Positions 13,521 through 47,235 of a stretch of DNA of 64,000 bases are shown here, piece after piece. Location: the NCBI GenBank assembly GCA_035943695.1, contig DASZBW010000022.1, positions 4,102 to 68,101 of the forward strand, in the 5' to 3' direction. The translations under genes and the position numbers were made by a program. Position 1 is the stretch's first letter. Each line of letters starts with the position of its first letter. This stretch comes from Acidobacteriaceae bacterium (GTDB taxonomy: Bacteria > Acidobacteriota > Terriglobia > Terriglobales > Acidobacteriaceae). Below the pieces are notes generated by a model, which searched no databases, was not told where the DNA came from, and saw nothing but the letters and a program-made list of their open reading frames with translations.

Positions 13521-13695
13521 TCAAGTTGGACCAGCCGTTCGACGCCGGACGCCCGGGATCAGGTTGGCCGGTGTTCCAGTATGCAACACAGATTACCGCA
13601 AGCAGGAATCCATTAGATTGCACCTGCGATTGCCAAGCTTCAAAATCCACGTGTAAATGCGACTTTCGCTGAATGGAAAATCGGTCCTATGCAGA

Positions 13696-14304: not shown

Positions 14305-14340
14305 GATCCATTCTAAGTCCGTGGGCGCATCCAAATCTTT

Positions 14341-15583: not shown

Positions 15584-15587
15584 CGTC

Positions 15588-16010
15588 TTAGTGGGCCGCC
15601 GCGACCACTGCGCCAGCCTCTTCGGCAACGTGGTTCTTCTTCTTCCAGTCGCCAATCGCCGCGCGAATCGCATCTTCCGCAAGCACCGAGCAGTGAATCT
15701 TCACCGGAGGAAGCGCCAGCTCCTTCACGATGTCAGTGTTAGTAATAGTCAGCGCCTCGGAGACAGTCTTGCCCTTCACCCACTCCGTCGCCAGCGAGCT
15801 CGAAGCGATCGCCGAGCCGCAGCCAAAGGTTTTGAACTTCGCGTCCTCGATGACCTGAGTCTCGGGGTTGACTCGGATCTGGAGCCGCATCACGTCGCCG
15901 CACTCCGGCGCTCCGACCAGCCCGGTGCCTACTGCATCCGAAGCCTTGTCGAGCGTCCCGACATTCCGTGGATTCTCGTAATGATCGACTACCTTATCGC
16001 TGTATGCCAT
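15588..16010 (-). CDS. iscU: Fe-S scaffold IscU
   Basis: GAPECGDVM, KTFGCGSAIASSS and LPPVKIHCSVLAEDAI motifs. Confidence 0.97.
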   Translation of the reverse strand: MAYSDKVVDHYENPRNVGTLDKASDAVGTGLVGAPECGDVMRLQIRVNPETQVIEDAKFKTFGCGSAIASSSLATEWVKGKTVSEALTITNTDIVKELALPPVKIHCSVLAEDAIRAAIGDWKKKNHVAEEAGAVVAAAH

Positions 16011-30624: not shown

Positions 30625-31605
30625 ATCCGAAGCATCCATTCCAGACGCTGTATAGCCACGGCACTCCTTGCGCTCACACCGGCACTCACCGGCTGTTCCG
30701 CCTTCCGAAGTGTCGCCAAATATCTGGCGGTCCATAAGCATGCCGTGCTCAAGACCCATCCTCCCGACGTAGTCCTCACCAGCTCCATGGACGAACTGCT
30801 CAAGCAGATCGACAACCGCTATACCGCCGTCGACACCATCACGAGTCGCCAAGTCGAAATGGACCTGTGCTGGGGCGGCGGGACGGACGGCATACAGAAC
30901 TGTTCCAACTTCAGCGGTTACATCGTCGTCCAGAAGCCCGAAAAGATTCTCGTCGTCCTCAAGCTCCCCGTCGTAGGCAGCGCAGCCCTCAATATGGCCT
31001 CAGACGGCAGGGCCTTCAAGATGAAGGTCCCACCCTATAACTGCGCCATCGTCGGCTCCGATGAAGTCACCAGCAGCTCCCAGAAGGGCATCTACGCGCT
31101 TCGCCCCAGCGCAATCCTCGACTCCATGCTGATTCGCGGCATCCGGGCCAACCAGGTCGTCTCCATGACCCAGGACAGCCGCACCCTGCCCGACCCCAAA
31201 AACCGCAAGAGCCTCATGCTCGAACCAGACTACGACATCGAATTCCTCTCCCAGCCTGCCGGTCAGATCGCCAGCACCCTCCGCGTGCTCCACACCAGCC
31301 GAGTCAACCTGCTGCCCTACCGACAGGACATCTACAACCCGGAAGGCAAAATCGTCACGACAGCCTTCTACAGCAACTACCAGAAGTTCGGCGACATCAA
31401 CTTCCCCACAAAGATCGAAATTCAACGCCCGCTCGACGAACTCAAACTCACCATCACCCTCAGCAAGACCGTCTTCAACCAGACCCTGCCGGCGGACCAG
31501 TTCGACATCGATATCCCCGCCACCTACAAAACCTACAAAATGGACGACCCATCCATCGCCGCTACAGTCCCGTGCGGCGCGCATGCGACGCAATCGCCGC
31601 ATTGA
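30625..31605 (+). CDS. LolA/LolB-like (DUF4292-type) lipoprotein; start uncertain (ATC 30625 or GTG 30745)
   Basis: The open frame includes a signal peptide and lipobox LTGC upstream of the GTG. Beta-rich body ending FNQTLPADQFDI. Confidence 0.6.
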   Translation: MRSIHSRRCIATALLALTPALTGCSAFRSVAKYLAVHKHAVLKTHPPDVVLTSSMDELLKQIDNRYTAVDTITSRQVEMDLCWGGGTDGIQNCSNFSGYIVVQKPEKILVVLKLPVVGSAALNMASDGRAFKMKVPPYNCAIVGSDEVTSSSQKGIYALRPSAILDSMLIRGIRANQVVSMTQDSRTLPDPKNRKSLMLEPDYDIEFLSQPAGQIASTLRVLHTSRVNLLPYRQDIYNPEGKIVTTAFYSNYQKFGDINFPTKIEIQRPLDELKLTITLSKTVFNQTLPADQFDIDIPATYKTYKMDDPSIAATVPCGAHATQSPH

Positions 31606-32851
31606 TCTCCAGCGCCAACCCCAGCGCCGCCCGCCCATCCTCCACCGTCACCTCTGGCTCCCGCCGCGTCCGCACCGCCTCCAGAAAAGCCTCAATCTCC
31701 AGCCGCAGCGGCTCCCCCGCCTCCACCGCAACCTTCCGCATCTCCATCCCCCCCGAAGGATGTTCACCAACCCTCTGACCATCCGCTGTCGAACTCTTCC
31801 CCACCCCCAAAACTCCGGGTGCCCCATCCTTCGCAGCCTCATCGCGAAGGGTGGAGTCCAACATCTTCGCCGCGATCTTCCCCAAATCCGCTCCCGTCAC
31901 ATCGATCACCAACAAATCCTGCCGCGCAAAGTCCAGCGAAAGATACTGCCGCGGCTGAAAGAACCGCATCTTCCGTACCCGCTCCGTACTCACCCGGCTC
32001 GCAGTAAAGTTCGCCACACAGCCGTTCTCAAACTCCAGCCGCACATTCGCGATATCCACCTTATTCGACAACACCGGAAGCCCTACCGCCCGAACCTCCC
32101 GCACCGGCACACCTACCAGGTTCATCACAATATCCAGGTCATGGATCATCAAATCCAGCACCACATCGACATCCAGCGACCGCGGCGTAAACACGCTCAT
32201 CCGGTGCACCTCAAAGAACATCGGCTTGTTCAGCAGCCCACGCACCGCCCGCACCGCCGGGTTGAACCGCTCCAGATGCCCCACCTGCACCACGCGCCCT
32301 AGCTTCTGCGACAGCGCCACAATCTCATCCGCCTCAGCCAGCGTAGCCGCCAACGGCTTCTCGATCAGCACATCCACACCCGCCGCCATCAACTCCCGCG
32401 CACAAGCCAGATGATGCACCGTAGACACACAAACCGAAGCCGCCGAAATCCCCCTGAGGCCTCCTCTCTGTTTGTCATTCTGAGCGGAGCGAAGAACCCC
32501 CGCATCTCCTCCCACAGAGCCACCAACCCCGGGTGCCCCATCCTTAGCAGCCTCATCGCTAAGGGTGGGATCCACAAAGCCCGCATCACCTACTCCGGGT
32601 GCCCCATTCATGCGCGCATTTTGCGCATGAGTGGGATCGACAAATCCCGCACCCCCACCCTCCCCCATTAGACACTCAGCAACCGAAGCATACCCACGCA
32701 CCCCAAAGTCCGCCTCAGCCCGCCCTCGAGCCCCAGCATCGGGATCAATCACCGCCGCCAGCTCCACCGGATATCCCGCCACCTCCAGCTCGCGATAAAC
32801 CCGCAGATGGTTCCGCCCGAACGCCCCCGCGCCCACCACCACCACCCGCAT
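31562..32851 (-). CDS. Gfo/Idh/MocA oxidoreductase (possibly GnnA-like UDP-GlcNAc 3-dehydrogenase) with repeat-derived inserts
   Basis: MRVVVVGAGAFG, LIEKP, GHLERFNPA and DLMIHDLD motifs. Start reset to the ATG at 32851. Confidence 0.88.
   Translation of the reverse strand: MRVVVVGAGAFGRNHLRVYRELEVAGYPVELAAVIDPDAGARGRAEADFGVRGYASVAECLMGEGGGAGFVDPTHAQNARMNGAPGVGDAGFVDPTLSDEAAKDGAPGVGGSVGGDAGVLRSAQNDKQRGGLRGISAASVCVSTVHHLACARELMAAGVDVLIEKPLAATLAEADEIVALSQKLGRVVQVGHLERFNPAVRAVRGLLNKPMFFEVHRMSVFTPRSLDVDVVLDLMIHDLDIVMNLVGVPVREVRAVGLPVLSNKVDIANVRLEFENGCVANFTASRVSTERVRKMRFFQPRQYLSLDFARQDLLVIDVTGADLGKIAAKMLDSTLRDEAAKDGAPGVLGVGKSSTADGQRVGEHPSGGMEMRKVAVEAGEPLRLEIEAFLEAVRTRREPEVTVEDGRAALGLALEINAAIASHARRTGL
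31817..31855 (+). repeat. Palindromic element family A, inside the Gfo gene
   Basis: GGGTGCCCCAT-CCTTCGC-N9-GCGAAGG-GTGG. Confidence 0.9.
32473..32662 (+). repeat. Composite insert in the Gfo gene: one family B copy (32473-32505) and two family A copies (32531, 32597; 66-bp period)
   Basis: TGTCATTCTGAGCGGAGCGAAGAACCCCCGCAT is identical to 44339-44371; two GGGTGCCCCAT...GTGGGAT hairpins follow. Confidence 0.9.
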
Positions 32852-32883
32852 TACGGACTGTTCGCCATCCCGCAGTCCGCACT

Positions 32884-32933
32884 CCCCGGCGAGCGGTCCC
32901 GGCTCGCCGGGGTGAAGCGAAGCGGTGGAACCT
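32884..32933 (+). repeat. 11-bp-stem hairpin with a family-B-like tail (family D)
   Basis: CCCCGGCGAGC-N7-GCTCGCCGGGG followed by TGAAGCGAAGCGGTGGAACCT. Confidence 0.6.
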
Positions 32934-33000
32934 CTTTCTCCACCGCCCCCCACAGCTTCCTGTTCCTTGTACCTTACTCCCTGCTCCCTGCCCTCCGGCA

Positions 33001-33213
33001 CTACTTCACCGAACCCTCAACCGCCGACCTGCAACGCCCATACAGCTCCAGCAGCTCCGTAACCTGATCCTCTGCCTTCGCCGAAGCCGCCGCCCCAAAA
33101 CCCACGCCGCCGCTAGCCGCCTTCGCGCCCACATGCGCCTGCGCCGCCACAAACTTTAGCAGATCCAAAGCAATATCCTCAGTCCGCCGAGCTCCATTGT
33201 TCACTTCACTCAT
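33001..33213 (-). CDS. Small hypothetical protein
   Basis: 70 aa, helical ends with a Gly/Ala linker; ATG start; same strand as the downstream Gfo gene. Confidence 0.6.
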   Translation of the reverse strand: MSEVNNGARRTEDIALDLLKFVAAQAHVGAKAASGGVGFGAAASAKAEDQVTELLELYGRCRSAVEGSVK

Positions 33214-33403
33214 CGTCGATTCCCTCTCTCAATTTCCACCCCGATCTTAAAGTCCCACCCCACCCCAAAGCAAATCGCCAATCTGCCACAATGCCTCTCC
33301 ATCCGAATTCCACGCATTATCTCGGGGAACATTCCGTCCTGCATCTCCGTCTATATAGGAAGAACACAACAGCACCGCCGCAGGTTTGCCAGGAGATAAG
33401 ACC

Positions 33404-34630
33404 ATGCCCCGCACGATCTCCCACCCCACGCCACCTGCAAGTTCACTCGCCTCACTCTTCCTTCTACTCGCCGCTTTTTTCACCGCCGTCACACCATACG
33501 CGACAGCCCAGTTCGACGACATCACCCTCGCCACCATCGCCTCCACAGATCAAATACAGCAATGGCTCCGCAGCGGAGATCCCCGCCGAATCGCCTGGGG
33601 AGCCCACTTCGCCCGCGAACAAAACGACCAGCCCGCACTCGCACTCATAGCCCAGATGCTCACAGGCTGGAGAGCTCCGCAAGCATCGCAGGATCAAGCA
33701 TTGCCCAACCGCCCCACATTTGAGCAACAAGCCCCCACCGTTGCCATGCTCGATGCACTCATCCAACGCAACCGTGCGCTGCCGACGGATGCCATCGCAA
33801 CCCTTGCCCCGTTCTTCCCCGCGCAGGCAGCACTCCTCGCCAAAAATCTCTCTGCGACGGACGCAACGCCCCTGCTTCTGTCCTGGTACGCCCATCGCTC
33901 CAGCGACGACCGCGGCAGCCTTGCACACGTCGCAGCCATCATACTCAGCCACTCACCGCCCCCCGCCTTCGCCGCCACTGTCCTCGCCGAATCCGAGGAG
34001 ACGCTGTACATCTCCGTCTTCTCAAAACCCGACGGTCTCGGTTTCGGCTCGGGCGGGTCCTTCATCGGTTCTGGCGTACCCTTGCCACCCCCAGCCTGGC
34101 CACCAGTCTTCAACTATGTCCTCACCGAGGACTTTCAGCAAACACCGCAGACGAAGCCCGCGAAAGCGGACGAATGCCAACCGCCGGCTCCCCCGCCACC
34201 CCGAAGCTTAGATCCCATCTTCGCCGACGCCGCTGGCGATCACATTCGCTACCACCGCTACGACCTGCTGAAGTATCCCAGCGTATCCGGCGGCGTAAGT
34301 GCTCTCAACGACAAAAATCGCCACTACCTGTTAGCCCAGATGCTAGGAGTAACCGACGACCAGATTCCCTGGAATCCCACCACCTTCACCTCCATTGTCT
34401 GGCACAGCGACGGTCAATACCTTACCGAAGCCGCTGGCTTCGCAGCAGCCGAAGAAGCCAAACTCCGCGCCTCCGTCCAGGCCATCGAGTCACACGGCCT
34501 GCTCACGCCCGAAGAAGCCGCCTCCGTCCGCCCAAAACTCTCCATCACCATTCAAGACCTCCGCGAACCCAGCGGCCCACCGCTGCCACAACTGACCTTC
34601 GCGGATCTGCGTACTACCCTCTCCCATTGA
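33404..34630 (+). CDS. Secreted hypothetical protein
   Basis: Long ORF with the local codon bias and an N-terminal signal peptide (..PYATA-QF); no recognised family. Confidence 0.65.
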   Translation: MPRTISHPTPPASSLASLFLLLAAFFTAVTPYATAQFDDITLATIASTDQIQQWLRSGDPRRIAWGAHFAREQNDQPALALIAQMLTGWRAPQASQDQALPNRPTFEQQAPTVAMLDALIQRNRALPTDAIATLAPFFPAQAALLAKNLSATDATPLLLSWYAHRSSDDRGSLAHVAAIILSHSPPPAFAATVLAESEETLYISVFSKPDGLGFGSGGSFIGSGVPLPPPAWPPVFNYVLTEDFQQTPQTKPAKADECQPPAPPPPRSLDPIFADAAGDHIRYHRYDLLKYPSVSGGVSALNDKNRHYLLAQMLGVTDDQIPWNPTTFTSIVWHSDGQYLTEAAGFAAAEEAKLRASVQAIESHGLLTPEEAASVRPKLSITIQDLREPSGPPLPQLTFADLRTTLSH

Positions 34631-34655
34631 CCCACATCCGGCACGGAGCAAGCGT

Positions 34656-35843
34656 CTACTCGATCGATCCAGCCCGCACCCCGCACAAAATCTCATACGC
34701 AATTGTGCCCGCCAGCCGAGCATGATCCTCCGCCGTAACTCCATCCCCCAGCAGCACCACTTCGTCCCCCACCCGAACTCCCTCAATCCCCGTCACATCC
34801 ACCATCGTCAGATTCATCGACACCCGCCCCACAATCTCCGCCCTCCGCACCACCCCATCCGCACCCCGCACCCCTACCCACCCACCACCACGTTCATTCG
34901 TCGATGACAACTCCCGCCGCAGCCCATCCGCATACCCCACCCGCAGCAACGCCACCCGCATGGCGTGTTCCGCAGTAAACATAGCGTTATACCCAAACGT
35001 CTCCCCCGCCACCGCATCGCGCACATCGATCACCCGAGTCTTCCAAGTCATCACCGGCTCCAGTGCCCCCCGCACCCTGCCACGCACCTCACCACCAGCA
35101 ATCGGCAGACAATACCCATACAGCGCAATCCCACACCGCACCATAGCCCGCGCACCCACACTCTTCGCCAGCTCCACCAGCCACCCCGCCTCCGCACCCT
35201 CCGCCGCATTATCCACGCTGGAAGAACTCCCCGCATGAACCCACCCCAGCCTCAGCCCACGCCCCCGCACCTGCGCCACCGCCGCCTCAAACCTCTTCTC
35301 CTGCGCCCGCGTCAACTCCTGGTCCCCAACCTCCGCCGCCGCAAAGTGCGTCATCACCCCATCCACCTCAACCCCGCCAGCCTTCATCGCATCCAGCAAA
35401 TCATCCATCGCCGCGCCGGCACGAACCCCCTGCCGACCCATCCCCGTCTCAATCTCCACATGCACCCGCACACCGGACCCAGCCAGCCACCCCACCTGCT
35501 CCGCAGTCCACACCACCGGCGTCAACCCACACGCCACAATCTCCCCCACATCCTCCCGCAAAATCCCACACATCACCAAAATCCCCGGCCCACTCTCACA
35601 AACGCCCCCAGCCACATCGAGCGCCGCCCTCACCCGCGCTCCCTCATTCGCCGTCCCCACCCCCAGCCACTTCGCGCCAGCCCGCGCCAGCTCCACCGAG
35701 CACAACTCCAACCCATGCCCGTAAGCATTCGCCTTCACCACCGCAAGCACAGCAGTCTCGGCACCGGCAGCCTCGCTCACCACGCGATAGTTCTCCGCCA
35801 GCCTCTCCCGCGAAATCTCCATCCAGCTCGTCATTCGCTCCAC
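34656..35843 (-). CDS. alr: Alanine racemase
   Basis: AVVKANAYGHG (PLP lysine), HVEIETGMGRQG, MTHFA, GYADG, VGRVSM and IAYEILC motifs. Confidence 0.95.
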   Translation of the reverse strand: MERMTSWMEISRERLAENYRVVSEAAGAETAVLAVVKANAYGHGLELCSVELARAGAKWLGVGTANEGARVRAALDVAGGVCESGPGILVMCGILREDVGEIVACGLTPVVWTAEQVGWLAGSGVRVHVEIETGMGRQGVRAGAAMDDLLDAMKAGGVEVDGVMTHFAAAEVGDQELTRAQEKRFEAAVAQVRGRGLRLGWVHAGSSSSVDNAAEGAEAGWLVELAKSVGARAMVRCGIALYGYCLPIAGGEVRGRVRGALEPVMTWKTRVIDVRDAVAGETFGYNAMFTAEHAMRVALLRVGYADGLRRELSSTNERGGGWVGVRGADGVVRRAEIVGRVSMNLTMVDVTGIEGVRVGDEVVLLGDGVTAEDHARLAGTIAYEILCGVRAGSIE

Positions 35844-36527
35844 TCACACACCCGCAATATCCCCCGCCTCCAGCACCTGCTTCGCATACCCATGCTTCGC
35901 CACCGCAAGCATAGCCCTTCCCATCTGATCCGTCGTCGTCACATGCTTCGGAAACATCCGCAGCAACATCGGCAGCACCGGTCGCATCGCCGCATACATC
36001 CCTCGATACCAACCCGTCTTCGAAACAATCCCATCCCGCGGCACAATCATCCCCGGTCGAAACATATACGCCGCCTTGAACCCCATCGACAGCAGCCAAT
36101 CCTCCGTCTCACCCTTCACCCGCGCCCACATCGCTCGCCCATTCGAGTTCGTCCCCGCACCCGACACATACAAAAACGTCATCCCATCCCCGTACACCGA
36201 AGTCGGATTCACCCGCAGCAAAGTCCGCGCCGCCGACGTCGTCATCTCAAACGTCACCCGCCGATACTCCGCCTCCTTCATCTCCACCGCCGAAACCCCC
36301 ACGCAGAACAGGCATGCGTCATACCCCATCAACTCGCCCTCCACTCGCGAAAGATCCGCCAGGTCCGCCGCCACCACCTCACGCACCTTCTCACTCCTCC
36401 GTCCCAACCCCGGCGCCGTCGCCTTCCTCACCACCGACACCACAGCCGTCACCTCCCGGTCCAGCACACACTCCCGCAACACCCCTTGCCCCACCATCCC
36501 CGTAGCCCCAAACAAAATCACCTTCAA
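35844..36527 (-). CDS. NAD(P)-binding epimerase/dehydratase-like protein
   Basis: ILFGATGMVG, YVSGAG, WARVKGETE and FRPG motifs. Confidence 0.85.
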   Translation of the reverse strand: MKVILFGATGMVGQGVLRECVLDREVTAVVSVVRKATAPGLGRRSEKVREVVAADLADLSRVEGELMGYDACLFCVGVSAVEMKEAEYRRVTFEMTTSAARTLLRVNPTSVYGDGMTFLYVSGAGTNSNGRAMWARVKGETEDWLLSMGFKAAYMFRPGMIVPRDGIVSKTGWYRGMYAAMRPVLPMLLRMFPKHVTTTDQMGRAMLAVAKHGYAKQVLEAGDIAGV

Positions 36528-36557
36528 CGCAACCCGTCCTTCCGCCGCACAACTCCA

Positions 36558-36801
36558 GCTTCTAAGTGGTCAAAGCTTCAGAGCTTCCACGTAAGCCAGG
36601 GCTTCAGCCGTGACCTCCGCAGTAGCCCCCTTCAACGCAACATCTAAGCTCTCGCTTCTAGGTAAGCCAAGGCTTCAGCCGTGACCTGTACAGTAGCCCC
36701 TCCAACGCAACATCCAAGCTCTCGCTTCTAGGTAAGCCAAGGCTTCAGCCTTGGCCCTCTCCAGCCTACATACAACGGGGGCTTTAGCCCCTGGGGCATG
36801 C
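36558..36801 (+). repeat. About 70-bp tandem array ending in a complete family C element (36728-36801)
   Basis: Units start GTAAGCCA at 36591, 36662 and 36732, each followed by GGCTTCAGCC; the last continues to GGGGCTTTAGCCCCTGGGG. Confidence 0.85.
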
Positions 36802-36845
36802 TCTCTTCGCTGCGCCACATCAATCCAAATTCCCACACCACCAGC

Positions 36846-38228
36846 CTAATACCCACCCGCATCCCCACCCGTAGCCGCATTCGCGAACAAAGTGTAATCC
36901 GACAGATAAACCAGCTCCACCGTCCCCGTAGGCCCATTCCTCTGCTTGGCGATAATGATCTCCGCCTTCCCCTTCAAATCCTCATTCTCCCGGTCGTAGT
37001 ACTCCGGCCGATGAATAAACGCCACCACGTCCGCATCCTGCTCAATCGATCCCGACTCACGAAGATCGCTCAGCAGCGGCTTATGATCCCCCGTCCTCTG
37101 CTCACTCCCACGCGACAGCTGACTCAGCGCCACCACCGGCACCTTCATCTCTTTGGCCAGCGCCTTCAGTCCACGCGAGATCGAACTAACCTCCTGCGTC
37201 CGATTTTCAAATCCCTTCTTCCCCGTAGGATTCGACCCCGTCATCAGCTGCAGATAGTCCACCATAATCAAATCCAGCCGCCCCTCCTGCTGCTTCAGTC
37301 GCCGCGCCTTCGCCCGCATCTCCGCCAGCGAGATCCCCGGCGTATCGTCGATAAACATCTTCGACTCCATCAGCCGCTCCAGCGCACTCAGCAGTTTGCC
37401 CTTATCTTCCTTCGGCAGAAATCCCGTCTGAATCTTCCGCGAATTCACCTGCGCCTCACTAGCCAGCAACCGCCTTAACAAACTCTCCTTCGACATCTCC
37501 AGCGAGAACACCGCCACGACTTTCCCATCGCGAATCGCCGCATTCTGCGCAATGTTGATCGCCCAGGCAGTCTTTCCCATACTCGGACGAGCCGCAATAA
37601 TAATCAGCTCCGACTCCTGCAACCCACTCGTCATCCGGTCGAACTCGATGAAGTGCGTCGCCAGCCCCGTAATCTCCCGCCCCTGCTCATACAGCTTGTC
37701 GATCGACCCGAAGCTCGAAGCAACAATATCTCCAATCCCCGACAACCCGCGCGAGATCGCCGAGTCCGCCACCTCCGCCAGCAGCGCCTCCACATCGCCC
37801 AGCAGCGTAATCGCGTCTTCCCCATGGTCGCCCGCCCGCGTCCCCGCCTCGTGGAAGATACCCATCAACTGCCGCAGCAGGCTCTTGTCCTTCACAATCC
37901 GGACATAGCTCTCAATATTGAAATTCCGCGGAATCCCCTCCGTCAGGTAAGCCAGATAAGCCGGCCCCCCAATCGAATCCAGCTCCCGCTTTCGCCGCAA
38001 CTCCTCCCCCACCGTCAGCGCATCCACCCCATGCCCGCGCGCCATCAACTCGATCATGCAGCGATACAGCCGCTGGTGCGAATCCAGCGAAAAGTCCTCC
38101 GCCAACAGCCGCGCCGTCGCATCCGAGATCGCCACACCATCCAGCAGCATCGCGCCCAGCACCGCCACCTCAATATGCAGCGAAGCCGGAGCCGCATCCA
38201 ACGAACCCAATTGTGCCAACGAAGCCAT
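36846..38228 (-). CDS. dnaB: Replicative DNA helicase
   Basis: AARPSMGKT (Walker A), FSLEM, VDYLQLM, LSQLSR, DLRESGSIEQDAD and IAKQRNGPTG motifs. Confidence 0.97.
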   Translation of the reverse strand: MASLAQLGSLDAAPASLHIEVAVLGAMLLDGVAISDATARLLAEDFSLDSHQRLYRCMIELMARGHGVDALTVGEELRRKRELDSIGGPAYLAYLTEGIPRNFNIESYVRIVKDKSLLRQLMGIFHEAGTRAGDHGEDAITLLGDVEALLAEVADSAISRGLSGIGDIVASSFGSIDKLYEQGREITGLATHFIEFDRMTSGLQESELIIIAARPSMGKTAWAINIAQNAAIRDGKVVAVFSLEMSKESLLRRLLASEAQVNSRKIQTGFLPKEDKGKLLSALERLMESKMFIDDTPGISLAEMRAKARRLKQQEGRLDLIMVDYLQLMTGSNPTGKKGFENRTQEVSSISRGLKALAKEMKVPVVALSQLSRGSEQRTGDHKPLLSDLRESGSIEQDADVVAFIHRPEYYDRENEDLKGKAEIIIAKQRNGPTGTVELVYLSDYTLFANAATGGDAGGY

Positions 38229-38334
38229 ACCCGATTATCCCCCTCGTCCACCCTGAGCAAAAAGAGCCGCCTTAGTGGGAAATCTCACCATTTCGCAGAA
38301 GTAGATCGCGAAGGTCCTGTGGGGTTCCCAGCCC

Positions 38335-38455
38335 GGTGCCCCATTCATGACAACATCATCGTCATGAGTGGGGTCCGCCGCGTCCGGGTGATAGCCGTCC
38401 GACAGCCGGATACCTGGGTGCCCCATTCATGACAGCACTATCGTCATGAGTGGGG
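38335..38455 (+). repeat. Two family A hairpins upstream of dnaB (38335-38373, 38416-38455)
   Basis: GGTGCCCCAT-TCATGAC-N9-GTCATGA-GTGGGG twice. Confidence 0.9.
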
Positions 38456-38569
38456 GTCTCCGTCGCCACGGTCATAACCTTCCGCCAGCTGATTACTCTG
38501 CACCACCCCCATTCAATGGCATAATGACTCAAACCCCAGGCGCACCAGCCCAACGGAGTCCACCCAACC

Positions 38570-38869
38570 ATGCCCTCCAGCAAGCCACTCGAAATCCCCG
38601 CCGCCGCCACCCGCGACCCCGGCTCCTTCGAAGTCCTCCGCGTATGGATCGCCGAGCAGGGCCAGCACGTCTCCATCCGCTCCGGCGCCTGGGAAGACCC
38701 CTTCGCCTGGGGCATCGTCCTCGCCGATCTCGCCCGCCACATCGCCCTCGCCCAGCAACTCCACACCCCCACCACCGACATCGAAGCCTTCGTCGAGCGC
38801 CTCCTCGAAGGCTTCCACGCCGAAATCGAAAACCCCACCGACGAACCCGAAGGCGAAGTCACCCAATAG
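38570..38869 (+). CDS. DUF5076-like small protein
   Basis: EVLRVWIA...WEDPFAWGIVLADLARHIA motif; strong codon bias. Confidence 0.7.
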   Translation: MPSSKPLEIPAAATRDPGSFEVLRVWIAEQGQHVSIRSGAWEDPFAWGIVLADLARHIALAQQLHTPTTDIEAFVERLLEGFHAEIENPTDEPEGEVTQ

Positions 38870-38922
38870 CCCTCCTCGAAATCTCGCCGCGCTATACTGA
38901 CCCGTCCGCAAAAGAGGTCATC

Positions 38923-41900
38923 GTGCAGCGTTCTGAGCAGTCGTTCCTCCTGTCTTCCATTCGACGTTCTATCCCATTCCACTCCACTAAAATTTCCCTT
39001 GCCCTCCTCCTCGCTGCTTCTTATCCGCACAGCCCTCACGCTCTCGCCCAGAGCGCCGCTCCAGTCCAAGCCGCAACGTCCTCTCAGGCGCAGACCGAAA
39101 TCGATCCCACCCAGATTCGCAAGGTTGGCGGCAGCGTTTCCCCACCCGTTCTAACCTTCCATGTCGCACCCAGGTTCAGCCCACAAGCCCGCGCAGCCAG
39201 ATTTTCCGGCACTGTCCTGGTCGGAGCCATCATCGACACTTCTGGCACCCCGAGGAACGTGCACATAGTCCAAGGCCTCGGCATGGGGCTCGACGAATCC
39301 GCTGTAGACGCAGTCACCCAATTCCGCTTCAAACCCGCGATGGAGAGTGGCAAGCCCGTGCCCGTCCAGATCAACATCCGAGTCAACTTCCAGATCGATA
39401 AAAGTCAGAATGACGATGCATCGTCGAAGCCCGAAGCAATAGCCCCCGCGGCGAAATCATCTGACCTCTCGCCGGCACCCGCCCCCAACGCGCCACCAGC
39501 CGCAGCCCCGCTCACAGCGACCTCAACCGACCCCTACGCCGCCGAACCCATCGTCATCCTCAACATCGAGCATCTCTTCAGCATGGCCGCCGACGGCACC
39601 GGTTGGATGGAACATACATTCGACGCACGCCTTCAGTCCGACACCGCCGTCAAGCAGTACGGCGTCCTCACCGTCCCTTACGCCAGCGCCTCCCAACAAG
39701 TTGAACTCCAATATGTCCGCGCACGTCATCCCGACGGCACCGTCACCGAAACCCAGATCTCTGAAGCCATGGACATGCCCAGCCCCGTCACCCGCGAGGC
39801 TCCGTTCTACAGCGATCAAAAAGAACTGCAGCTGCCCATTCGCAACCTGCGCGTAGGCGACACGCTCGAGTTGAAATACCGCATCGTGCGCACCCGCGCC
39901 GAAGTCCCCGGCCAGTTCTGGGCCCAGGAAATCTTCTCCGACGCCGCAGTCGTCCTCTCCCAAACCATCGAGCTGCGCGTCCCCGCAGGCCTGGCCGTCA
40001 ACGTGTGGAGTCCCACCGTCAAGCCGGTCGAATCCACCTCAAGCCCCACCGCAGAAGCCCCCGCTCAACACATCTATCGCTGGACTCATTCTCAGCTTCA
40101 ACCCACCGCAGGCAAAGCAGCCGAAGCAGCAGCAGCCGCAAAAAAGAAAGTCCTTTGGACTCCGGAGCAGGAGATTGACGCTGCGCAAGGCAAGCTCCCC
40201 ACCATCGCCTGGAGTACCTTCAAATCCTGGCAGCAGGTCGGCGCATGGTACCGCTCGCTCGAAGCAGACCGCATCGTCCCCGACACTCTCAGAGCAAAGG
40301 CCGCCGAGTTGACCGCCGGCAAGACCACCGACGAAGCCAAAGCGCACGCACTCTACGATTACGTCGCTACCAACATTCGCTACATCGGCGTGGGATTCGG
40401 CATCGGCCGCTTCCAGCCCCACACCGCATCGGAGATCCTCGCCAACCAATACGGCGACTGCAAGGATAAGCACACACTCTTCGCCGCGCTCCTTGCAGCC
40501 GAAAATATCCACGCCGATGCGGTCCTCATCGGTGCAGGCATTCGTTTCAATCCCGACGTCCCCTCACCCTCGGCCTTCAACCACCTCATCACCCATCTCA
40601 CCTTGAACGGCAAGCCCGTATGGCTCGACACCACCGCCGAGGTCGCCCCCTGGGGAATGCTCGTCTCCACCACCCGCGACAAGCAATCACTCGTCATTCC
40701 CTCCGCACCCTCCGCAGAAGCTACCATCGTCCGCACCCCACTCGAACCCGCCATCCCCGACGCCCTGAGCCTGGAGGCTTCTGGATCGCTGGACACAAAT
40801 GGCATCTCGTCCTCTCACCTGGTCCTGACATTCCGAGGCGATGGCGAGATTGCGGCCCGCTCCGTCTCCCGCAGGATCCAGCCCGCGCAATACGACAAGC
40901 TCGCCGAAATTCTTGCCAAAACAATGGGCTTCTCCGGATCCGTAACCAACGCTGAGATCACACGCCCCACAGACACCACCCAGCCTTTCAAACTCAGCTT
41001 CGACTACAAACGCGAGAAGGCAGGCGACTGGGCTCGCCTCCGCACCCTTCCCGAAGTGATTCCCGTCAGCTTGCCGCGCGTCACAGATTTCGATCCCCCC
41101 GTCCGCGCGATCCAGCTGGGACTCCCCCGCACGCAGGACTCCACCTCCTCCATGAAGCTGCCTGCTGGCTGGAACGCCATCATGCCCCCTTCCTTCCACA
41201 CAGAATGCCGGTACGCGATCTACGACATGACCTACCGCCTCGAAGGCAATACCATCTATGCCACGCGCCACGTCGCGGTCCTGGCGAAAGAAGTCCCGGT
41301 CAGCCAATGGAAGGCGTACAAATCATGGATTGACGCAGTGAATCCAGCCAACCAGGCGGCGATTCAACTCGTCCCTGCCAGGAATATGCCGTCTGGCTCG
41401 ACGACTTCCTCGACCTCACCCTCTTCTGCCGCACCCGGGCAGACCCGCGCTCTCGGCGATATCCACACGCCTTCCCCGACCGAACCAAGGACGAAACAGA
41501 TTCAGGATGCGCTCGACGATCCCCGTCCCGGCCCCAAGAACAGCGTCGCCTACGCGCTGGCCATCAACAACAGCCATCTCGCAGACGCGCAACTGCTCGT
41601 CGACCAGGCTCTCTCCCTGCAAGAGCAGCAGGCAGCCGACGCGATATCCGGCGGTGATACCGGCAAAATCAGCCAGCAGATGCGCGCCCTCGCCAGCTTC
41701 TGGGATACGGCCGAGTTCCTCTACTACCGCACCCACAATTTCGCCAGGGCCGAACGCTACGGCCGCGCAGCATGGGAGCTGAATCCCAGCCAGGTTATGG
41801 CCATCCATCTCGCCTTCATCTATCAGGCCGAACATAAGCCCCAGGAAGCAATCGCCCTCTTTCGTATGGCGCTCAGCGACAGTCCAACCCCCGCCGCACT

Positions 41901-42288
41901 CGACGCAATCCAGAGTCACCTCGCCACTCTCGGTTCTCCAGACGCCGAACCTCTCCCCATTGACATCGTCACACCCTTGCCCGATGCCAGGCTCCCCACC
42001 CTCGCGCCGGACGACGAGCCCCTGGTCGACATCGTACTCAGCCATGCCTTGCCGCCCGCTCTTACCTGGCTCAAAGCGAGTGCTGCGCAAAAGCAGGCAC
42101 TGAGCCTCCCCATTCAATCCGCACTGGCATCCTGGCTTCCCGATGAAGGCCCAGAGCTGGTGCTTCGTCACGCAGAGGTCTCCTGCACCACCGGCAATAC
42201 ACCCGCCTGCGCCCTGCATTCCATCGTCCCGCACCCACACCCGCCCACAGCAAACGGGCAAACCCGGTCAATCGCGCCAAAGCAGTAG
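38923..42288 (+). CDS. Secreted TonB-C-terminal + DUF3857 + transglutaminase-like + TPR multidomain protein
   Basis: GTG start after AAGAGG. TonB_C (G.V.V.AIIDTSGTPRNV..LDESAVDAV.QFRFKPA); YGDCKDKHTL / FNHLI / WLDTT Cys-His-Asp triad; TPR helices near the C-terminus. Confidence 0.8.
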   Translation: MQRSEQSFLLSSIRRSIPFHSTKISLALLLAASYPHSPHALAQSAAPVQAATSSQAQTEIDPTQIRKVGGSVSPPVLTFHVAPRFSPQARAARFSGTVLVGAIIDTSGTPRNVHIVQGLGMGLDESAVDAVTQFRFKPAMESGKPVPVQINIRVNFQIDKSQNDDASSKPEAIAPAAKSSDLSPAPAPNAPPAAAPLTATSTDPYAAEPIVILNIEHLFSMAADGTGWMEHTFDARLQSDTAVKQYGVLTVPYASASQQVELQYVRARHPDGTVTETQISEAMDMPSPVTREAPFYSDQKELQLPIRNLRVGDTLELKYRIVRTRAEVPGQFWAQEIFSDAAVVLSQTIELRVPAGLAVNVWSPTVKPVESTSSPTAEAPAQHIYRWTHSQLQPTAGKAAEAAAAAKKKVLWTPEQEIDAAQGKLPTIAWSTFKSWQQVGAWYRSLEADRIVPDTLRAKAAELTAGKTTDEAKAHALYDYVATNIRYIGVGFGIGRFQPHTASEILANQYGDCKDKHTLFAALLAAENIHADAVLIGAGIRFNPDVPSPSAFNHLITHLTLNGKPVWLDTTAEVAPWGMLVSTTRDKQSLVIPSAPSAEATIVRTPLEPAIPDALSLEASGSLDTNGISSSHLVLTFRGDGEIAARSVSRRIQPAQYDKLAEILAKTMGFSGSVTNAEITRPTDTTQPFKLSFDYKREKAGDWARLRTLPEVIPVSLPRVTDFDPPVRAIQLGLPRTQDSTSSMKLPAGWNAIMPPSFHTECRYAIYDMTYRLEGNTIYATRHVAVLAKEVPVSQWKAYKSWIDAVNPANQAAIQLVPARNMPSGSTTSSTSPSSAAPGQTRALGDIHTPSPTEPRTKQIQDALDDPRPGPKNSVAYALAINNSHLADAQLLVDQALSLQEQQAADAISGGDTGKISQQMRALASFWDTAEFLYYRTHNFARAERYGRAAWELNPSQVMAIHLAFIYQAEHKPQEAIALFRMALSDSPTPAALDAIQSHLATLGSPDAEPLPIDIVTPLPDARLPTLAPDDEPLVDIVLSHALPPALTWLKASAAQKQALSLPIQSALASWLPDEGPELVLRHAEVSCTTGNTPACALHSIVPHPHPPTANGQTRSIAPKQ

Positions 42289-42306
42289 CGAAGGTTGGCA
42301 CCCCCC

Positions 42307-42343
42307 TTGAAGACTCGCTCCAACTTAGCTAAGATAACTTAGC
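42307..42343 (+). promoter_or_regulatory. Sigma70-type promoter with palindromic operator for the TA module
   Basis: TTGAAG-17 nt-TAAGAT; the perfect palindrome CTTAGCTAAG (42324-42333) overlaps the -10 box. Confidence 0.6.
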
Positions 42344-42360
42344 AGGATAGGAGCCGCCCC

Positions 42361-42618
42361 ATGGCGACAGCCACCATCTTCGAAGCCAAGACCAATCTCT
42401 CCGCCCTCATCAAAAAGACCCAGGCGGGCGAGACAGTCATCATCACCTCCGGCCGCAACAAAACCCCCGTAGCCAAACTCACCCCCATCGACCCCGCCCA
42501 GCCAGTCGTCAAAAAGCGTCTTGGCGTCATGGAAACTCCAGGCTTCGTCCTGCCGGACTCCTTCTGGGAACCGCTGCCACCCGGTTGGGATGGCGAGACT
42601 GAGAGTGAAAGCGAGTGA
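42361..42618 (+). CDS. Phd/YefM-family antitoxin
   Basis: TIFEAKTNLSALI...GETVIIT..KTPVAKLTP. Confidence 0.9.
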   Translation: MATATIFEAKTNLSALIKKTQAGETVIITSGRNKTPVAKLTPIDPAQPVVKKRLGVMETPGFVLPDSFWEPLPPGWDGETESESE

Positions 42619-43001
42619 ACGTTTTGCTCGACACCCATACCCTGGTTTGGGCCGTACTCTCTCCCCCCAAACTCAGTAAGGCAGCAGCATACGTTGTCGC
42701 AGACCCAACGATTGAAATCTTCGTCTCTGCAGCCTCTGCCTGGGAGATTGCGACAAAAGTCCGTCTCGGTAAATTTCCCGAAGCCATACCCTTTGAAGGG
42801 CGTTTTCTCGATACGGTAGCTGAAGCTGGTTACACCCTCTTGTCCATAGAACCAGAAACAGCGCTTCGCGCAGGGCGTCTCATAGCCGATCACGGCGACC
42901 CCTTCGACCGCATCATCGCCGCGCAGGCTCTCGCCCTCGACATCCCCGTCATCAGCAAAGACCAGCAGCTGGACCAGTTCAACATCCGCCGCATCTGGTA
43001 G
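42615..43001 (+). CDS. vapC: VapC/PIN-domain toxin
   Basis: LLDTH, SAASAWEI, HGDPFDRIIAAQA and ISKD motifs; 4-nt overlap with the antitoxin. Confidence 0.92.
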   Translation: MNVLLDTHTLVWAVLSPPKLSKAAAYVVADPTIEIFVSAASAWEIATKVRLGKFPEAIPFEGRFLDTVAEAGYTLLSIEPETALRAGRLIADHGDPFDRIIAAQALALDIPVISKDQQLDQFNIRRIW

Positions 43002-43033
43002 CGCGACGTCTCCCACATGCATCCAACTCCACC

Positions 43034-43939
43034 ATGCCCGCACCCACCTCAGGCCGCGTCCGCATCGGCATCTCCGGCTGGAGCTACAAAGGCTGGCGCG
43101 GTACCTTCTACCCGCCCAAGCTCCCCCACAAAAAAGAACTAGCCCACGCCGCCACTCTCTTCCCCTCCGTCGAGATCAACGGCACCTTCTACTCCATGCA
43201 GCGCCCCTCCAGCTTCCTCAACTGGGTCGCAGAAACCCCACCCAACTTCGTCTTCGCCATCAAGGGCAGCCGCTACATCACCCACATGCTCAAGCTCCGC
43301 AACGTCGAGCAGGCCCTCGCCAACTTCTTCGCCTCCGGCCCCCTCGCCCTCGGCCCCAAACTAGGCCCCATCCTCTGGCAGTTCCCCCCGAACCTCGCCT
43401 TCAACCCGGAAAAATTCGAAGCCTTCTTCCACCTCCTCCCCACCACCACCGCCTCTGCCGCCGACCTAGCCCGCCGCCACGACGAGCGCCTCACCGGCCG
43501 TGCCTTCACCGAAGCAGGCCGCACCCGCCGCATCCGCCACGCCGTCGAGATCCGCCACGAATCCTTCCGCACCCCCGCCTTCATCCAACTCCTCCGCCGC
43601 TACAATATCGCCCTCGTCTGCGCCGACACTGTCGACTGGCCCCTCCTCATGGACGTCACCTCGGACTTCGTCTACTGCCGCCTCCACGGTGGCGAAGTCC
43701 TCTACACCAGCGGCTACTCCGACGCCGATCTCGACCTCTGGGCCACCCGCATAGCCGCCTGGGCCCGAGGCCAGGACTGCGACCGCACCCACGCCCTCAA
43801 CACCTTTGCCCACCCCACCCCATGCCGCCCCCGCCTCACTCGCGACGTATACGTCTACTTCGACAACGACGCCAAAGTCCACGCCCCCTACGACGCCCAA
43901 AACCTAATCACCCGCGTCAACACCCTCCTCGCACAGTAA
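43034..43939 (+). CDS. DUF72 (YecE-like) protein
   Basis: IGISGWSY, VEINGTFY, LWQFPP, EIRHESF, YCRLHG and YVYFDNDAK motifs. Confidence 0.9.
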   Translation: MPAPTSGRVRIGISGWSYKGWRGTFYPPKLPHKKELAHAATLFPSVEINGTFYSMQRPSSFLNWVAETPPNFVFAIKGSRYITHMLKLRNVEQALANFFASGPLALGPKLGPILWQFPPNLAFNPEKFEAFFHLLPTTTASAADLARRHDERLTGRAFTEAGRTRRIRHAVEIRHESFRTPAFIQLLRRYNIALVCADTVDWPLLMDVTSDFVYCRLHGGEVLYTSGYSDADLDLWATRIAAWARGQDCDRTHALNTFAHPTPCRPRLTRDVYVYFDNDAKVHAPYDAQNLITRVNTLLAQ

Positions 43940-43959
43940 CTCCTCACCCCGATCACACC

Positions 43960-43999
43960 GGTGCCCCATTCATGACAGTCTCACCGTCATGAATGGGGC
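43960..43999 (+). repeat. Family A hairpin between the convergent DUF72 and mnmG genes
   Basis: GCCCCATTCATGAC-N9-GTCATGAATGGGGC (14-bp perfect stem). Confidence 0.9.
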
Positions 44000-44021
44000 C
44001 TACCTCCGCAGCCAGCCCCCG

Positions 44022-46535
44022 TTACGCGGTCTTCCGCCGCCCCTGAATCTCAATAAAACAATTCACCAGGCTCACCGCCGCCGGCGTCACTCCCTGAATC
44101 CGCCCAGCCTGCCCCAGCGTTCTCGGCCGCACCCGCCCCAGCGTCTCCACCATCTCCCTGCTCAACCCCGAACAAGCCGCATAATCGAACCCAACCGGAA
44201 TCACCCTTTCCTCATCCCGCTTCAGCTTCGCCATCGTCTTCTTCTGCTGCTCCAGATACCCCGCATACTTGATCTCCGTCTCCACCGTCTTCATCTCATT
44301 CCGAACCCACGCCGGAAGTCTCCCACTGGCGACGGACGTGTCATTCTGAGCGGAGCGAAGAACCCCCGCATTTTCTCCGGCCACCCAAACACCCCCTCCG
44401 CTCATCCAAACTCCCAATTCCTCCACCCCACCCACCACCTCATGCAAGACCGGCCACAACCCCTCCACCATAACCTCCGGCCTCTTCAAAACCTGCGCCC
44501 AGGTCTGCCCCTTCATCTCCGAAACATCCCCGCGCAAAGCCCCCCCCAACATCTCCACCAAAGCCTCAGCCCGCTCCCCCACCCGCATCTCCAACACCCG
44601 CGCAAACGCCTCCGCCCGAGCCATCTTCGCCTCATGCGCCGCCCACGCAACATCATCAATCAGCCCCAGCCGCCGCCCATACACCGTCAGCCGACGATCC
44701 GCATTATCAATCCTCAAATGCAGCCGAAACTCCGCCCGCGAAGTAAACATCCGGTAAGGCTCATTCGTCCCCTTCGAGATCAAATCATCAATCAAAATCC
44801 CCGTATACCCCTCCGTCCGATCCAGCGTAAACCCTGCAAACTCCCCCCACCCCAAAACTCCGGGTGCCCCATCCATCGCAGCCTCACCGCGATGGGTGGG
44901 ATGTAAGACCTCCGCTTCCCCCACCAAAGCCTTTGCCCATAAGGCAGCATTAATTCCCGCCATCAACCCCTGGCAAGCCGCCTCTTCATACCCACTCGTC
45001 CCATTGATCTGCCCCGCCAGAAACAGCCCGGCAAACTTCTTCACTCCCAGCGTCCTATCCAGCTCCGTCGGGTCAATAGCGTCATACTCGATCGCATACC
45101 CCGGCCGCAACATCTCTGCATTCTCCAGCCCAGGTATCGACCGCACCATCGCCACCTGCACCTCCATCGGCAGGCTGGTCGACATGCCATTCACATAAAC
45201 CTCATGCGTATTCAGCCCCTCCGGCTCCAGAAAAAACTGGTGCTGCGTCTTCTCCGGAAACCGCACGATCTTGTCCTCAATCGAAGGACAATACCGCGGC
45301 CCCGTCGCATGAATCTGCCCCGTATACATCGGCGACCGGTGCGCATTCTCCCGGATCAGCCGCATCGTCTCCGGCGACGTCGTAGCAATATAGCAACTCA
45401 CCTGCCGCAACTCCGGCACCCAGCTCCCACCCCCGCATCCCGCCGTAGAAGAGAGAACGGGCCAGGCCGAGCGTAGCGGAGAAGGTATCGCCTCTAGGTA
45501 CCCCAAGGCTTCAGCCTTGGGTCTCTCTGCCACGGCCGAAGAACAAGAGGCTTTAGCCTCTGGGGTATGCCCTCCGTCCGCCGCGCCGACAGCCTCATTC
45601 TGAGCGAAGCCGCGTGCCCCATCCATCGCAGTCTCATCGCGATGGGTGGGATGCAAATCTCCCCGTGCCCAATTCCTGCCAGTCCTATCGTCATGAGTGG
45701 GCGCCAACCCCGTTCCCCGCTTCAACCCCGCCCGAAAACTAAACGGAGTAGGATCCACATCCCCAGGCTGCTCCTCAAACCTCGTCCAATCAATCGTCCG
45801 CCCATCCAGCCGCGGCGGAGTCCCTGTCTTCAACCTGCACTCCCGCAGCCCCAGCCGCTTCAGCGCCTCCCCCAGCAACACGCTCGCCGGCTCCCCACTC
45901 CGCCCCGCCGCGTACTGCTGCTCCCCACAATGAATCAACCCATTCAAAAACGTCCCCGTAGTCACCACCGTAGCCCGCGCATAAACTACCCGCCCATCCC
46001 GCAGCCGCACGCCCACCACCCGCCGCTGCCTGTGCTCCTGGGCAAAGCTCCCACCCACAACATTGTCATCCTCAGCAGCGCCAGTAAAAACATTGTCATC
46101 CTGAGCGGAGCGCAGCGCAGTCGAAGGACCTGCGGTTCCTTCCTCCACCACCACATCCACCACCTCAGCTTGCTTAATAAACAAGCCCTTCTGCCCCTCC
46201 AGCACCTCCCGCATCTTCACCCGGTAAAGCGCCTTATCGCACTGCGCCCTCGGCGACCAAACAGCCGGCCCCCGCGAAGTATTCAGCAGCCGAAACTGGA
46301 TCCCACAAGCATCCGCCACTTCACCCATCACTCCACCCAGCGCATCCACCTCCCGCACCAGGTGTCCCTTAGCGATCCCGCCAATCGCCGGATTACAACT
46401 CATCTGCGCAATCAAATCCAGATTCAGCGTAAACAACGCCGTCCGCAGCCCCATCCGCGCCGCCGCCATAGCCGCCTCGCACCCCGCATGACCCGCCCCC
46501 ACCACCACCACATCAAACTCTTCCGTAAATCCCAT
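44022..46535 (-). CDS. mnmG: tRNA uridine-34 carboxymethylaminomethyl modification enzyme MnmG (GidA) with four repeat-derived in-frame inserts
   Basis: [58 protein letters not shown] and [12 protein letters not shown] all intact; 837 aa. Confidence 0.96.
44339..44371 (+). repeat. Family B element inside mnmG
   Basis: 33/33 identical to 32473-32505; read as [10 protein letters not shown] in both genes. Confidence 0.9.
44862..44902 (+). repeat. Family A element inside mnmG
   Basis: GGGTGCCCCAT-CCATCGC-N9-GCGATGG-GTGGGAT. Confidence 0.9.
45420..45715 (+). repeat. Composite insert in mnmG: family C (45494-45570), B fragment (45596-45610), family A (45614-45652) and degenerate A (45665-45701)
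   Basis: Direct similarity to the intergenic copies at 36728, 46635 and 38416. Boundaries approximate. Confidence 0.85.
46059..46137 (+). repeat. Family B element with an abortive upstream copy, inside mnmG
   Basis: AACATTGTCATCCTCAGC, then AACATTGTCATCCTGAGCGGAGCGCAGCGCAGTCGAAGGACCTGCGGTT; the tail is shared with 48163-48212. Confidence 0.85.
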
Positions 46536-46570: not shown

Positions 46571-46744
46571 CTATCATCCTGCCATTCTGCCCCCGTACTA
46601 TCACCGTGCCATTCTGAGCCGCCTAGTATCACCGTGTCATTCTGAGCGAAGCGAAGAACCCCCGCATTTCGCCTTTGCTCTGCTTTACCTTTGCCTCAGC
46701 CTTTGCCCGTTCCTGCTGTCATCCTGAACGCAGCGAAGTATCCC
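46571..46744 (+). repeat. Intergenic family B copies (46635-46667, 46717-46744) preceded by two degenerate junction copies
   Basis: CTATCATCCTGCCATTCTG / CTATCACCGTGCCATTCTGAGC / GTATCACCGTGTCATTCTGAGCGAAGCGAAGAACCCCCGCAT. Confidence 0.8.
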
Positions 46745-47235
46745 GATACGTCCGCCCAACCTCAACCTCCCGAACCTTTCTCCCACAGCCCACCGTCCCC
46801 CGACGACCTGTCAGCCTCAACTAAAAGCTGTCAGCGGATCGATAAACCTGCCGCCCTCCCGCCGAAAACCTGTCAACCCCCACCCACCCACATCGTGGAT
46901 ACAACCCATTCAAATACAGTAACTTAAGCCAAACCACCGCATGGCGAGCAGTTACGGTCAATCTCGTATAATAGAACTAGATGAAAAAAGCGAGGCGCCA
47001 TCAGCCTAAACGGCGCTTCAAAAACAGTGGTTCAATGACAACACTGGTGTGGCTATCTGTATACACCGATCACTAAATATTTACATTGCAGTAACTTAGA
47101 GATATATAGGGGGGGGAGGGGGAGTATGGTAAACAAGCCACAACAGAACATCCAGCCAGCCTTACCCAGCCGCCGACCCCTCGCGCCGTCCAGGAAGAAC
47201 CCGGCCTCCAGGATCACATCCTCCGCAGGCCTCCC

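Follow-up and report, generated by a model that had tools for sequence, protein, structure and literature searches.

The window analysed here, a 64-kb stretch of a soil-metagenome contig from an Acidobacteriaceae bacterium (DASZBW010000022.1), carries nine copies of a short DNA hairpin, Family A. Family A is very probably a repetitive extragenic palindromic (REP) family that is recognised and spread in Acidobacteriaceae by a cognate REP-associated tyrosine transposase (RAYT; TnpA_REP), an HUH/Y1 enzyme acting by cleavage of single-stranded DNA. Both the behaviour of Family A and its enzyme mark it as a REP-RAYT system; its strand polarity and the scale of its in-frame colonisation of genes are the features that merit a specialist's attention.

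The hairpin unit and the RAYT genes it flanks

The Family A unit consisted of an invariant foot, (CC)GGGTGC, followed by a 12-bp stem and a 9-nt loop, AGYCTCAYC; the stem comprised CCCAT, which pairs with the closing GTGGG, and 7 variable bp. A search of the window for GGTGCCCCAT-N23-GTGGG with up to two mismatches returned nine matches, all on the + strand, starting at 31818, 32532, 32598, 38335, 38417, 43960, 44863, 45613 and 45664 (copies 1 to 9). Shuffled sequence gave a mean of 0.13 matches, and nine were reached in 0 of 100 shuffles. When a covariance model was run over the entire window with filters off, the same nine copies were recovered and nothing further rose above noise. The DNA folding energy of the window copies was -10 to -14 kcal/mol on both strands. 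The original prediction had described nine copies with five fully complementary stem variants, one of the copies decayed, together with a loop fixed at 9 nt and a flank, CCCCAAAACTCC, common to the copies at 31818 and 44863; the window search bore out all of these. Its copies were real, but seven of the nine positions were off by one base. The complementary 7-bp arms that it gave as the stem were also present; however, the stem extended to 12 bp when the pairing of CCCAT with GTGGG, which includes a conserved T.G wobble, was added. Its proposal that structure rather than sequence is recognised held for the inner 7 bp, whereas the foot CCGGGTGCCCCAT and the 3' GTGGG were conserved in sequence.

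Contig L067, which was retrieved by the hairpin pattern alone, held an open reading frame (ORF) of 178 aa, found by a motif scan of the fetched loci. The protein matched Pfam Y1_Tnp and scored 111.6 bits on the NCBIfam model NF047646 'REP-associated tyrosine transposase' (cutoff 80), and its score on the IS200 model was 32.5 bits, under the cutoff of 55. It contained the motifs PEHVHLL (HVH), WQDRYFD and YIHRNP. Identical Family A hairpins stood on both sides of this RAYT gene, on the gene's own strand, and the stop codon lay within the downstream hairpin. A RAYT gene with flanking hairpins is a REPtron arrangement. A second RAYT, 68 nt from a hairpin, was found on L075 by tblastn with the L067 protein.

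A metagenome scan with the L067 protein gave 191 relatives, and 80 loci were kept. The covariance model placed a hairpin within 150 nt of the RAYT gene in 48 of the 80, and on both sides of it in 16. Hairpin density was 2.46/kb in the sequence adjoining the RAYT gene and 0.15/kb elsewhere in the same loci, a 16-fold difference. Upstream hairpins were on the same strand as the RAYT gene in 35 cases and on the opposite strand in 3; downstream hairpins were direct in 13 cases and inverted in 17. All of the RAYT-flanking hairpins inspected (about 40) had the foot GGGTGCCCCA(T) and the (G/A)TGGG sequence, while inner stems (6-10 bp) and loops (4-9 nt) varied with the RAYT lineage. Family A belongs, as one branch, to a superfamily in which the 'THVSEARHGAP' repeat of MnmG orthologues is also found. 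A mobilising nuclease had been one of two options offered at the outset, with linkage to RAYT/TnpA-REP genes as its check; that linkage was found (L067, L075 and the 48 metagenomic loci), and the nuclease option is supported by the RAYT genes that the hairpin flanks. The accompanying statement that no candidate enzyme is encoded in the window was correct.

Many RAYT-flanking hairpins were followed by a second small GC-rich hairpin. In REPtrons it stood directly past GTGGG, for example CATCGACCG-ACAG-GTCGACC, and it was seen in L067 (1390-1460 and 810-880), L120, L121, L123, L134, L187 and L192. A degenerate second small hairpin also followed the window copy at 38335. Since canonical REPs have GTGG with a hairpin after it, the mobile unit may have two parts and measure about 70-85 nt.

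Stem covariation and strand polarity

Beyond the window, one genome per species was scanned with the pattern GTGCCCCAT-N7-AGYCTCAYC-N7-RTGG. Matches fell in at least 117 blocks of 8 kb, and these came almost entirely from Granulicella, Edaphobacter, Tunturiibacter and further Acidobacteriaceae. The 186 distinct copies among the matches listed shared the unit CCGGGTGCCCCAT-N7-AGYCTCAYC-N7'-GTGGGAT, and their flanks were unconserved. Of the listed matches to the frame with any arm, 147 had 7-bp arms free of mismatches, 46 had a single mismatch, 5 had two and 12 had at least three; at least 26 distinct, perfectly complementary arms were present. When 66 copies were aligned, 97% of stem cells were paired, against about 42% in slid controls. 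Two-sided changes occurred in 7 of the 12 pairs (141 cells), and the observed value was reached in 0 of 500 shuffles. Pair 15-39 was T.G in 61 of the 66 aligned copies. Covariation in a larger alignment and many further copies beyond the window, the two things on which the original prediction had been made to depend, were both found.

Exact hairpin matches also occurred on contigs labelled as Gammaproteobacteria or Rhodanobacteraceae metagenome-assembled genomes (MAGs; L083, L093, L095, L016 and L055). One contig of 1.67 Mb among them (CAVUSA010000003.1) had three separate hairpin blocks. Either the taxonomy or binning of these contigs is mislabelled, or the hairpin genuinely occurs outside Acidobacteriaceae.

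The + strand of the window was strongly C-rich, with a GC skew of -0.3 to -0.45 at 16000-64000. In minus-strand genes about 60-70% of third codon positions were G, and in most plus-strand genes 60-78% were C; codon usage therefore depended on gene orientation. The skew changed sign at 4000-16000: it was slightly positive at 4-12 kb and turned strongly negative at about 16 kb, and this switch could be a replication terminus, an origin or a rearrangement boundary.

Family A was strongly polar with respect to the skew. The GGTGCCCCAT form was on the C-rich strand of its own 8-kb block in 167 of 178 copies among the matches listed, and the ratio of C-rich to G-rich strand was 108 to 5 for intergenic copies. 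Copies that lay outside the selection by search pattern gave 82 to 8, and loci retrieved via the RAYT protein gave 18 to 1. In complete chromosomes the hairpin orientation switched with the skew domain. The RAYT genes themselves were on the C-rich strand in 32 cases and on the G-rich strand in 4. Relative to genes, by contrast, orientation was mixed: 42 intergenic copies lay in '++' gene pairs and 18 in '--' pairs, and both orientations occurred inside genes. Orientation was thus mixed with respect to genes and more than 90% fixed with respect to skew, indicating that polarity is a property of the DNA strand and not of a transcript or peptide. Elements of the IS200/IS605 family insert into the lagging-strand template and hence show strand bias (PMC6006769), and by analogy the polarity of Family A matches their footprint. 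[quoted passage not shown]

The few copies on the G-rich strand (L036, L040, L090, L097 and L109) had loops shifted to G/T, such as GGCTGTATC, GGCTTTATC and GGTCTTATC. Such a shift is as expected if these copies have resided for a while under the opposite strand mutation pressure, for example after local inversions.

A host-selected polar DNA signal that some chromosome-handling protein reads directionally, comparable to FtsK-orienting polar sequences (KOPS) or Chi, would also account for a polarity of 92-96% relative to skew, for a foot that is invariant over many genera and for the switch of orientation with the skew domain. Selection would then keep the polarity, and the RAYT would be a domesticated maintenance enzyme. 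We consider this improbable. The copies were clumped, all nine in the window falling within 14 kb and the remaining 50 kb having none, and the presence of copies varied among close orthologues; insertion into essential coding sequence and the decay of old copies are better fitted by a selfish element.

Placement, in-frame copies and turnover

Gene calls in the loci were made with a codon model trained on the window, with a Pfam check on eight proteins, and the genic and intergenic percentages are approximate. For the 171 copies among the matches listed, 66% were intergenic, 25% lay inside called genes and 9% at gene edges; genic copies were depleted, since genes cover about 78% of the sequence. 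Convergent intergenic regions held 23 copies, '++' regions 42, '--' regions 18 and divergent regions 6, which corresponded to about 1.0 copies per kb of intergenic sequence in convergent, 0.6-0.8 in unidirectional and 0.2 in divergent regions. REPs likewise favour convergent and unidirectional over divergent regions (Di Nocera 2013, PMC3733652).

Outside the window, in-frame copies used four reading frames and lay in genes of either orientation. The element was read as PTxxDExxxDGAP where the host gene was G-rich-coding and as other peptides, e.g., GCPILRSLTAKGG, where it was C-rich-coding. The hosts included Lhr, LigD, LigA, UvrC, a UvrD/AddB-like helicase, PurL, an OPT transporter and a molybdopterin oxidoreductase. 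The Pfam domains of the in-frame hosts stood on both sides of the element or spanned its position. If the module P-T-x-x-D-E-x-x-x-D-G-A-P were itself selected in host proteins, the palindromy of the DNA would be incidental, and the in-frame peptide in six of the nine window copies and in 54 of 120 MnmG orthologues could be so explained. Such a protein module is hardly credible, as two thirds of the copies were intergenic, the same DNA was read in other frames and orientations (for example as PPMTIEPSRMGHP), and orthologues without the insert exist. A functional peptide module was rejected on the multiple reading frames of the same DNA.

The window copies had been treated as extragenic in the original prediction, but six of the nine were intragenic and in frame in minus-strand genes, where they encoded P-T-x-x-D-E-x-x-x-D/N-G-A-P. 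Three of them lay in a gene for a Gfo/Idh/MocA-family oxidoreductase (31562..32851, minus strand), which GFO_IDH_MocA matched in two stretches. The Rossmann domain of this protein was split by repeat-derived sequence, and the gene carried one copy from another repeat family besides the three Family A copies. Copy 1 (31813..31865, +; core 31818-31855; arms CCTTCGC/GCGAAGG) scored 66.7 bits and was read from the minus strand as STLRDEAAKDGAP. Copy 2 (32527..32579, +; CCTTAGC/GCTAAGG; 69.6 bits) was read as PTLSDEAAKDGAP, and copy 3 (32593..32645, +; TCATGCG/CGCATGA; 49.4 bits), which had the divergent loop CGCATTTTG, as PTHAQNARMNGAP.

The three intergenic copies all had the arms TCATGAC/GTCATGA. 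Copy 4 (38330..38382, +; 60.7 bits) lay in the divergent region between dnaB (-) and a TonB_C/DUF3857/transglutaminase-like gene (+), and copy 5 (38412..38464, +; 57.7 bits) was a direct repeat 82 nt further on in the same region. Copy 6 (43955..44007, +; 61.9 bits) lay in the convergent region between a DUF72 gene (+) and the 3' end of mnmG (-); here ATGGG replaced GTGGG, and the palindrome was perfect.

The remaining three copies were inside mnmG/gidA (44022..46535, minus strand), which also carried copies of other repeat families. Its product had 837 aa, compared with a usual length of about 630. Alignment with E. coli MnmG (PDB 9hip, 3cp2) gave five collinear blocks separated by four in-frame insertions, at aa 133-170, 270-375, 534-567 and 694-747, with a total gain of about 215 aa; the three Family A copies and the other repeat families were located in these insertions. 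An AlphaFold model of the 837-aa protein, built from a 40-sequence alignment, had a mean predicted local distance difference test score (pLDDT) of 43.5 and was unusable; the insertions were placed by the sequence alignment to the PDB entries. Copy 7 (44858..44910, +; CCATCGC/GCGATGG; 71.1 bits) added 13 residues in frame (aa 546-558) at hot spot 3, and copy 8 (45608..45660, +; same arms; 67.8 bits) added 13 (aa 296-308) at hot spot 2. The decayed copy 9 (45661..45711, +; 33.5 bits), a direct repeat 51 nt past copy 8, also contributed 13 residues in frame.

These hot spots were shared with other genomes. The 120 closest MnmG proteins ranged from 672 to 902 aa and had four insertion hot spots, and the Family A peptide occurred in 54 of them, with one to four copies each. 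Hot spot 3 was found empty (L[AS]VKGEDGF), occupied by Family A variants or by sibling families, or altered by a nested insertion in the loop or by deletions of the hairpin. An empty and a filled mnmG with 92% nucleotide identity differed by a 69-nt in-frame insertion. In the orthologues P0080, P0053 and P0056 another repeat was nested in the Family A loop at hot spots 2 and 3, giving PTHR-SATPTSKDRSPGTPVT-TMDGAP, and P0114 and P0115 had partial deletions that removed the loop or one arm.

In one clade the hot-spot-3 copy was vertically inherited, and uncompensated arm mutations were present in three of the four MnmG genes tested. That resident copies decay without compensation indicates that covariation originates in the source lineages, whose mobility requires pairing, and not through selection on each copy. 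Selection on each resident copy to fold was dropped on these uncompensated mutations in the MnmG clade.

An RNA element (a terminator, an mRNA 3'-end stabiliser or a regulatory stem-loop), whose stem would covary for RNA folding, had been the second option of the original prediction. The strongly conserved stem with its compensatory changes would suit such an element, as would a T.G pair that becomes a G.U wobble only in + strand RNA and the enrichment of intergenic copies in convergent and unidirectional regions (23, 42 and 18, against 6 in divergent ones). However, both orientations occurred relative to the flanking or host genes (42 '++' and 18 '--') while the orientation to the skew was more than 90% fixed, and about a third of the copies lay in or edged coding sequence. 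A T tail or terminator-like site was absent at all nine window copies. An Rfam scan of the window returned a single tRNA, and no family matched the hairpins at gathering score. No RNA sequencing run was found to contain the window. Together with the uncompensated mutations in the inherited MnmG copies, these observations disfavour an RNA element, which we regard as improbable.

Other repeats were present in the same region of the window. A second family, D5 (TGTCATTCTGAGCGGAGCGAAGAACCCC), had five copies (32473-32512, 44339-44378, 46094-46133, 46635-46674 and 46717-46756), two of which were read in frame as GVLRSAQND in the Gfo/Idh/MocA and MnmG genes; this peptide recurred in many MnmG orthologues. 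A third family, D3 (containing TAAGCCAAGGCTTCAGCC), formed three tandem copies of ~70 nt at 36556-36756, between the gene at 35844-36527 and dnaB, and had a fourth copy at 45463-45522 within mnmG insertion 2. Elsewhere, the segment 22743-25275 had a lower GC content (0.54) and two paralogous ORFs of ~390 aa that shared a 60-nt repeat (D17). A codon model trained on the remainder of the window left these ORFs uncalled, and they may have been horizontally acquired.

Relation to known systems and probable RAYT-driven spread

Family A was compared with the REP and RAYT systems of Nunvar 2010/2013, Bertels & Rainey 2011 (PMC3116915) and Quentin 2018 (PMC6006769). As in the REPtrons of Escherichia, Pseudomonas and Stenotrophomonas, a short hairpin whose foot is conserved and whose stem varies but stays paired was dispersed chiefly between unidirectional and convergent genes, flanked a Y1/HUH transposase gene above the NCBIfam RAYT cutoff, and came in variants that went with RAYT lineages. 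In contrast to described REPs, Family A has a long stem of 12 bp in which a T.G pair is conserved, its 9-nt loop is conserved, and about a third of the copies are in or edge genes. Its clusters are direct repeats and not inverted doublets. All nine window copies, as well as close pairs 51-160 nt apart, were in direct orientation, and no inverted REP doublet (REPIN) was found among them. Nor was the 5' tetranucleotide tag, GTAG (or GTGG) or CGTC, of the REP superfamilies of Di Nocera 2013 seen, the 5' foot being CCGGGTGC and GTGG occurring within the 3' stem half only. No window copy was among terminator-like sites, and gene orientation was mixed, unlike intrinsic terminators. A polarity above 90% relative to GC skew is not reported in the REP literature compared. 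A literature search for the motif returned unrelated primers only and no paper giving it.

The study of Di Nocera et al. 2013 (PMC3733652) describes Acidobacteria-specific, RAYT-like TIRYT genes (TIRtrons) flanked by terminal inverted repeats in T. saanensis, K. versatilis, A. capsulatum and G. mallensis, and reports intragenic REPs in repair genes. Family A is found in the same phylum with the same kind of gene, and flanking TIRYT repeats can, according to that article, belong to dispersed families. The 17 of 30 downstream hairpins that were inverted relative to the upstream one give RAYT loci the appearance of TIRYT-like terminal inverted repeats. The TIRYT motif given there is GGGGWSAS, in moderately abundant families; TGGGGCACC of Family A falls outside this published consensus.

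Palindromic elements of Rickettsia (RPEs), in-frame repeats in ORFs, are cited in the same article. Like them, Family A is palindromic selfish DNA that is kept in frame in housekeeping genes and adds a peptide at tolerated positions. The likeness is one of behaviour; the two differ in sequence, in size and in taxon. At about 100-150 bp, RPEs are the longer elements, they are confined to Rickettsia, and they are not known to have a cognate transposase. Family A, by contrast, has a RAYT and is mostly intergenic. A Y1/HUH enzyme is also shared with the IS200/IS605 elements IS608 and ISDra2, which recognise subterminal hairpins in single-stranded DNA. Unlike these, a Family A unit comprises one hairpin, about 45-85 nt in length, and lacks distinct left and right ends, and the L067 enzyme scores as a RAYT and not as an IS200 transposase.

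Several points weigh against RAYT-driven spread of Family A. The RAYT link rests on other genomes: neither tblastn with the L067 protein nor a motif scan found a RAYT in the window. Adjacent model matches were missing at 32 of the 80 RAYT loci, which may use sibling hairpins. The foot is GGGTGC and not the GTAG/GTGG found 0-2 nt 5' of the hairpin in described REPs. The only clean empty/filled pair differed by 69 nt, which exceeds the 43-nt conserved core, and the comparisons made revealed neither a transposition event nor a target site or target-site duplication. That the G-rich strand is the leading strand was assumed from the general rule and one chromosome coordinate; tRNA orientation offered three tRNAs in 101 loci, too few for a test. 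To our knowledge, RAYT-driven proliferation of REPs has not been directly shown even in E. coli.

If the RAYT does spread Family A, it would bind the folded hairpin in single-stranded DNA, reading the foot by sequence and the inner stem by shape alone. Because the inner stem would be read by shape, any paired stem would be accepted and new lineages with complementary arms could arise. Because single-stranded DNA would be asymmetrically exposed at replication forks, new copies would enter one strand, and polarity would result. Selection would presumably purge copies that break promoters or reading frames. The survivors would be 3' intergenic copies and in-frame copies in protein loops or linkers, such as those of MnmG, and resident copies would decay afterwards.

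The mechanisms by which REPs are disseminated 'are not known yet' (PMC3686654), though RAYTs cut and join REP DNA in vitro. With its invariant foot, variable paired stems and polarity above 90%, Family A is a natural data set and a defined substrate for replication-coupled, structure-guided transposition. If the polarity is a footprint of RAYT insertion, it would be the first genome-scale natural evidence on the spreading of REPs by RAYTs. The repeats also disturb gene prediction in the genomes and MAGs of Acidobacteriaceae, an abundant soil group: called genes come out too long or broken up, false 'hypothetical proteins' appear, and essential enzymes acquire disordered stretches. Masking the repeats is advisable in annotation and protein-family work. 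On the footprint reading, the same insertion process would be a major source of length variation in the housekeeping proteins of a phylum dominant in soil, comparable in scale to the RPEs of Rickettsia: MnmG proteins span 672-902 aa, and LigA, LigD, UvrC and Lhr, which serve repair and replication, are colonised.

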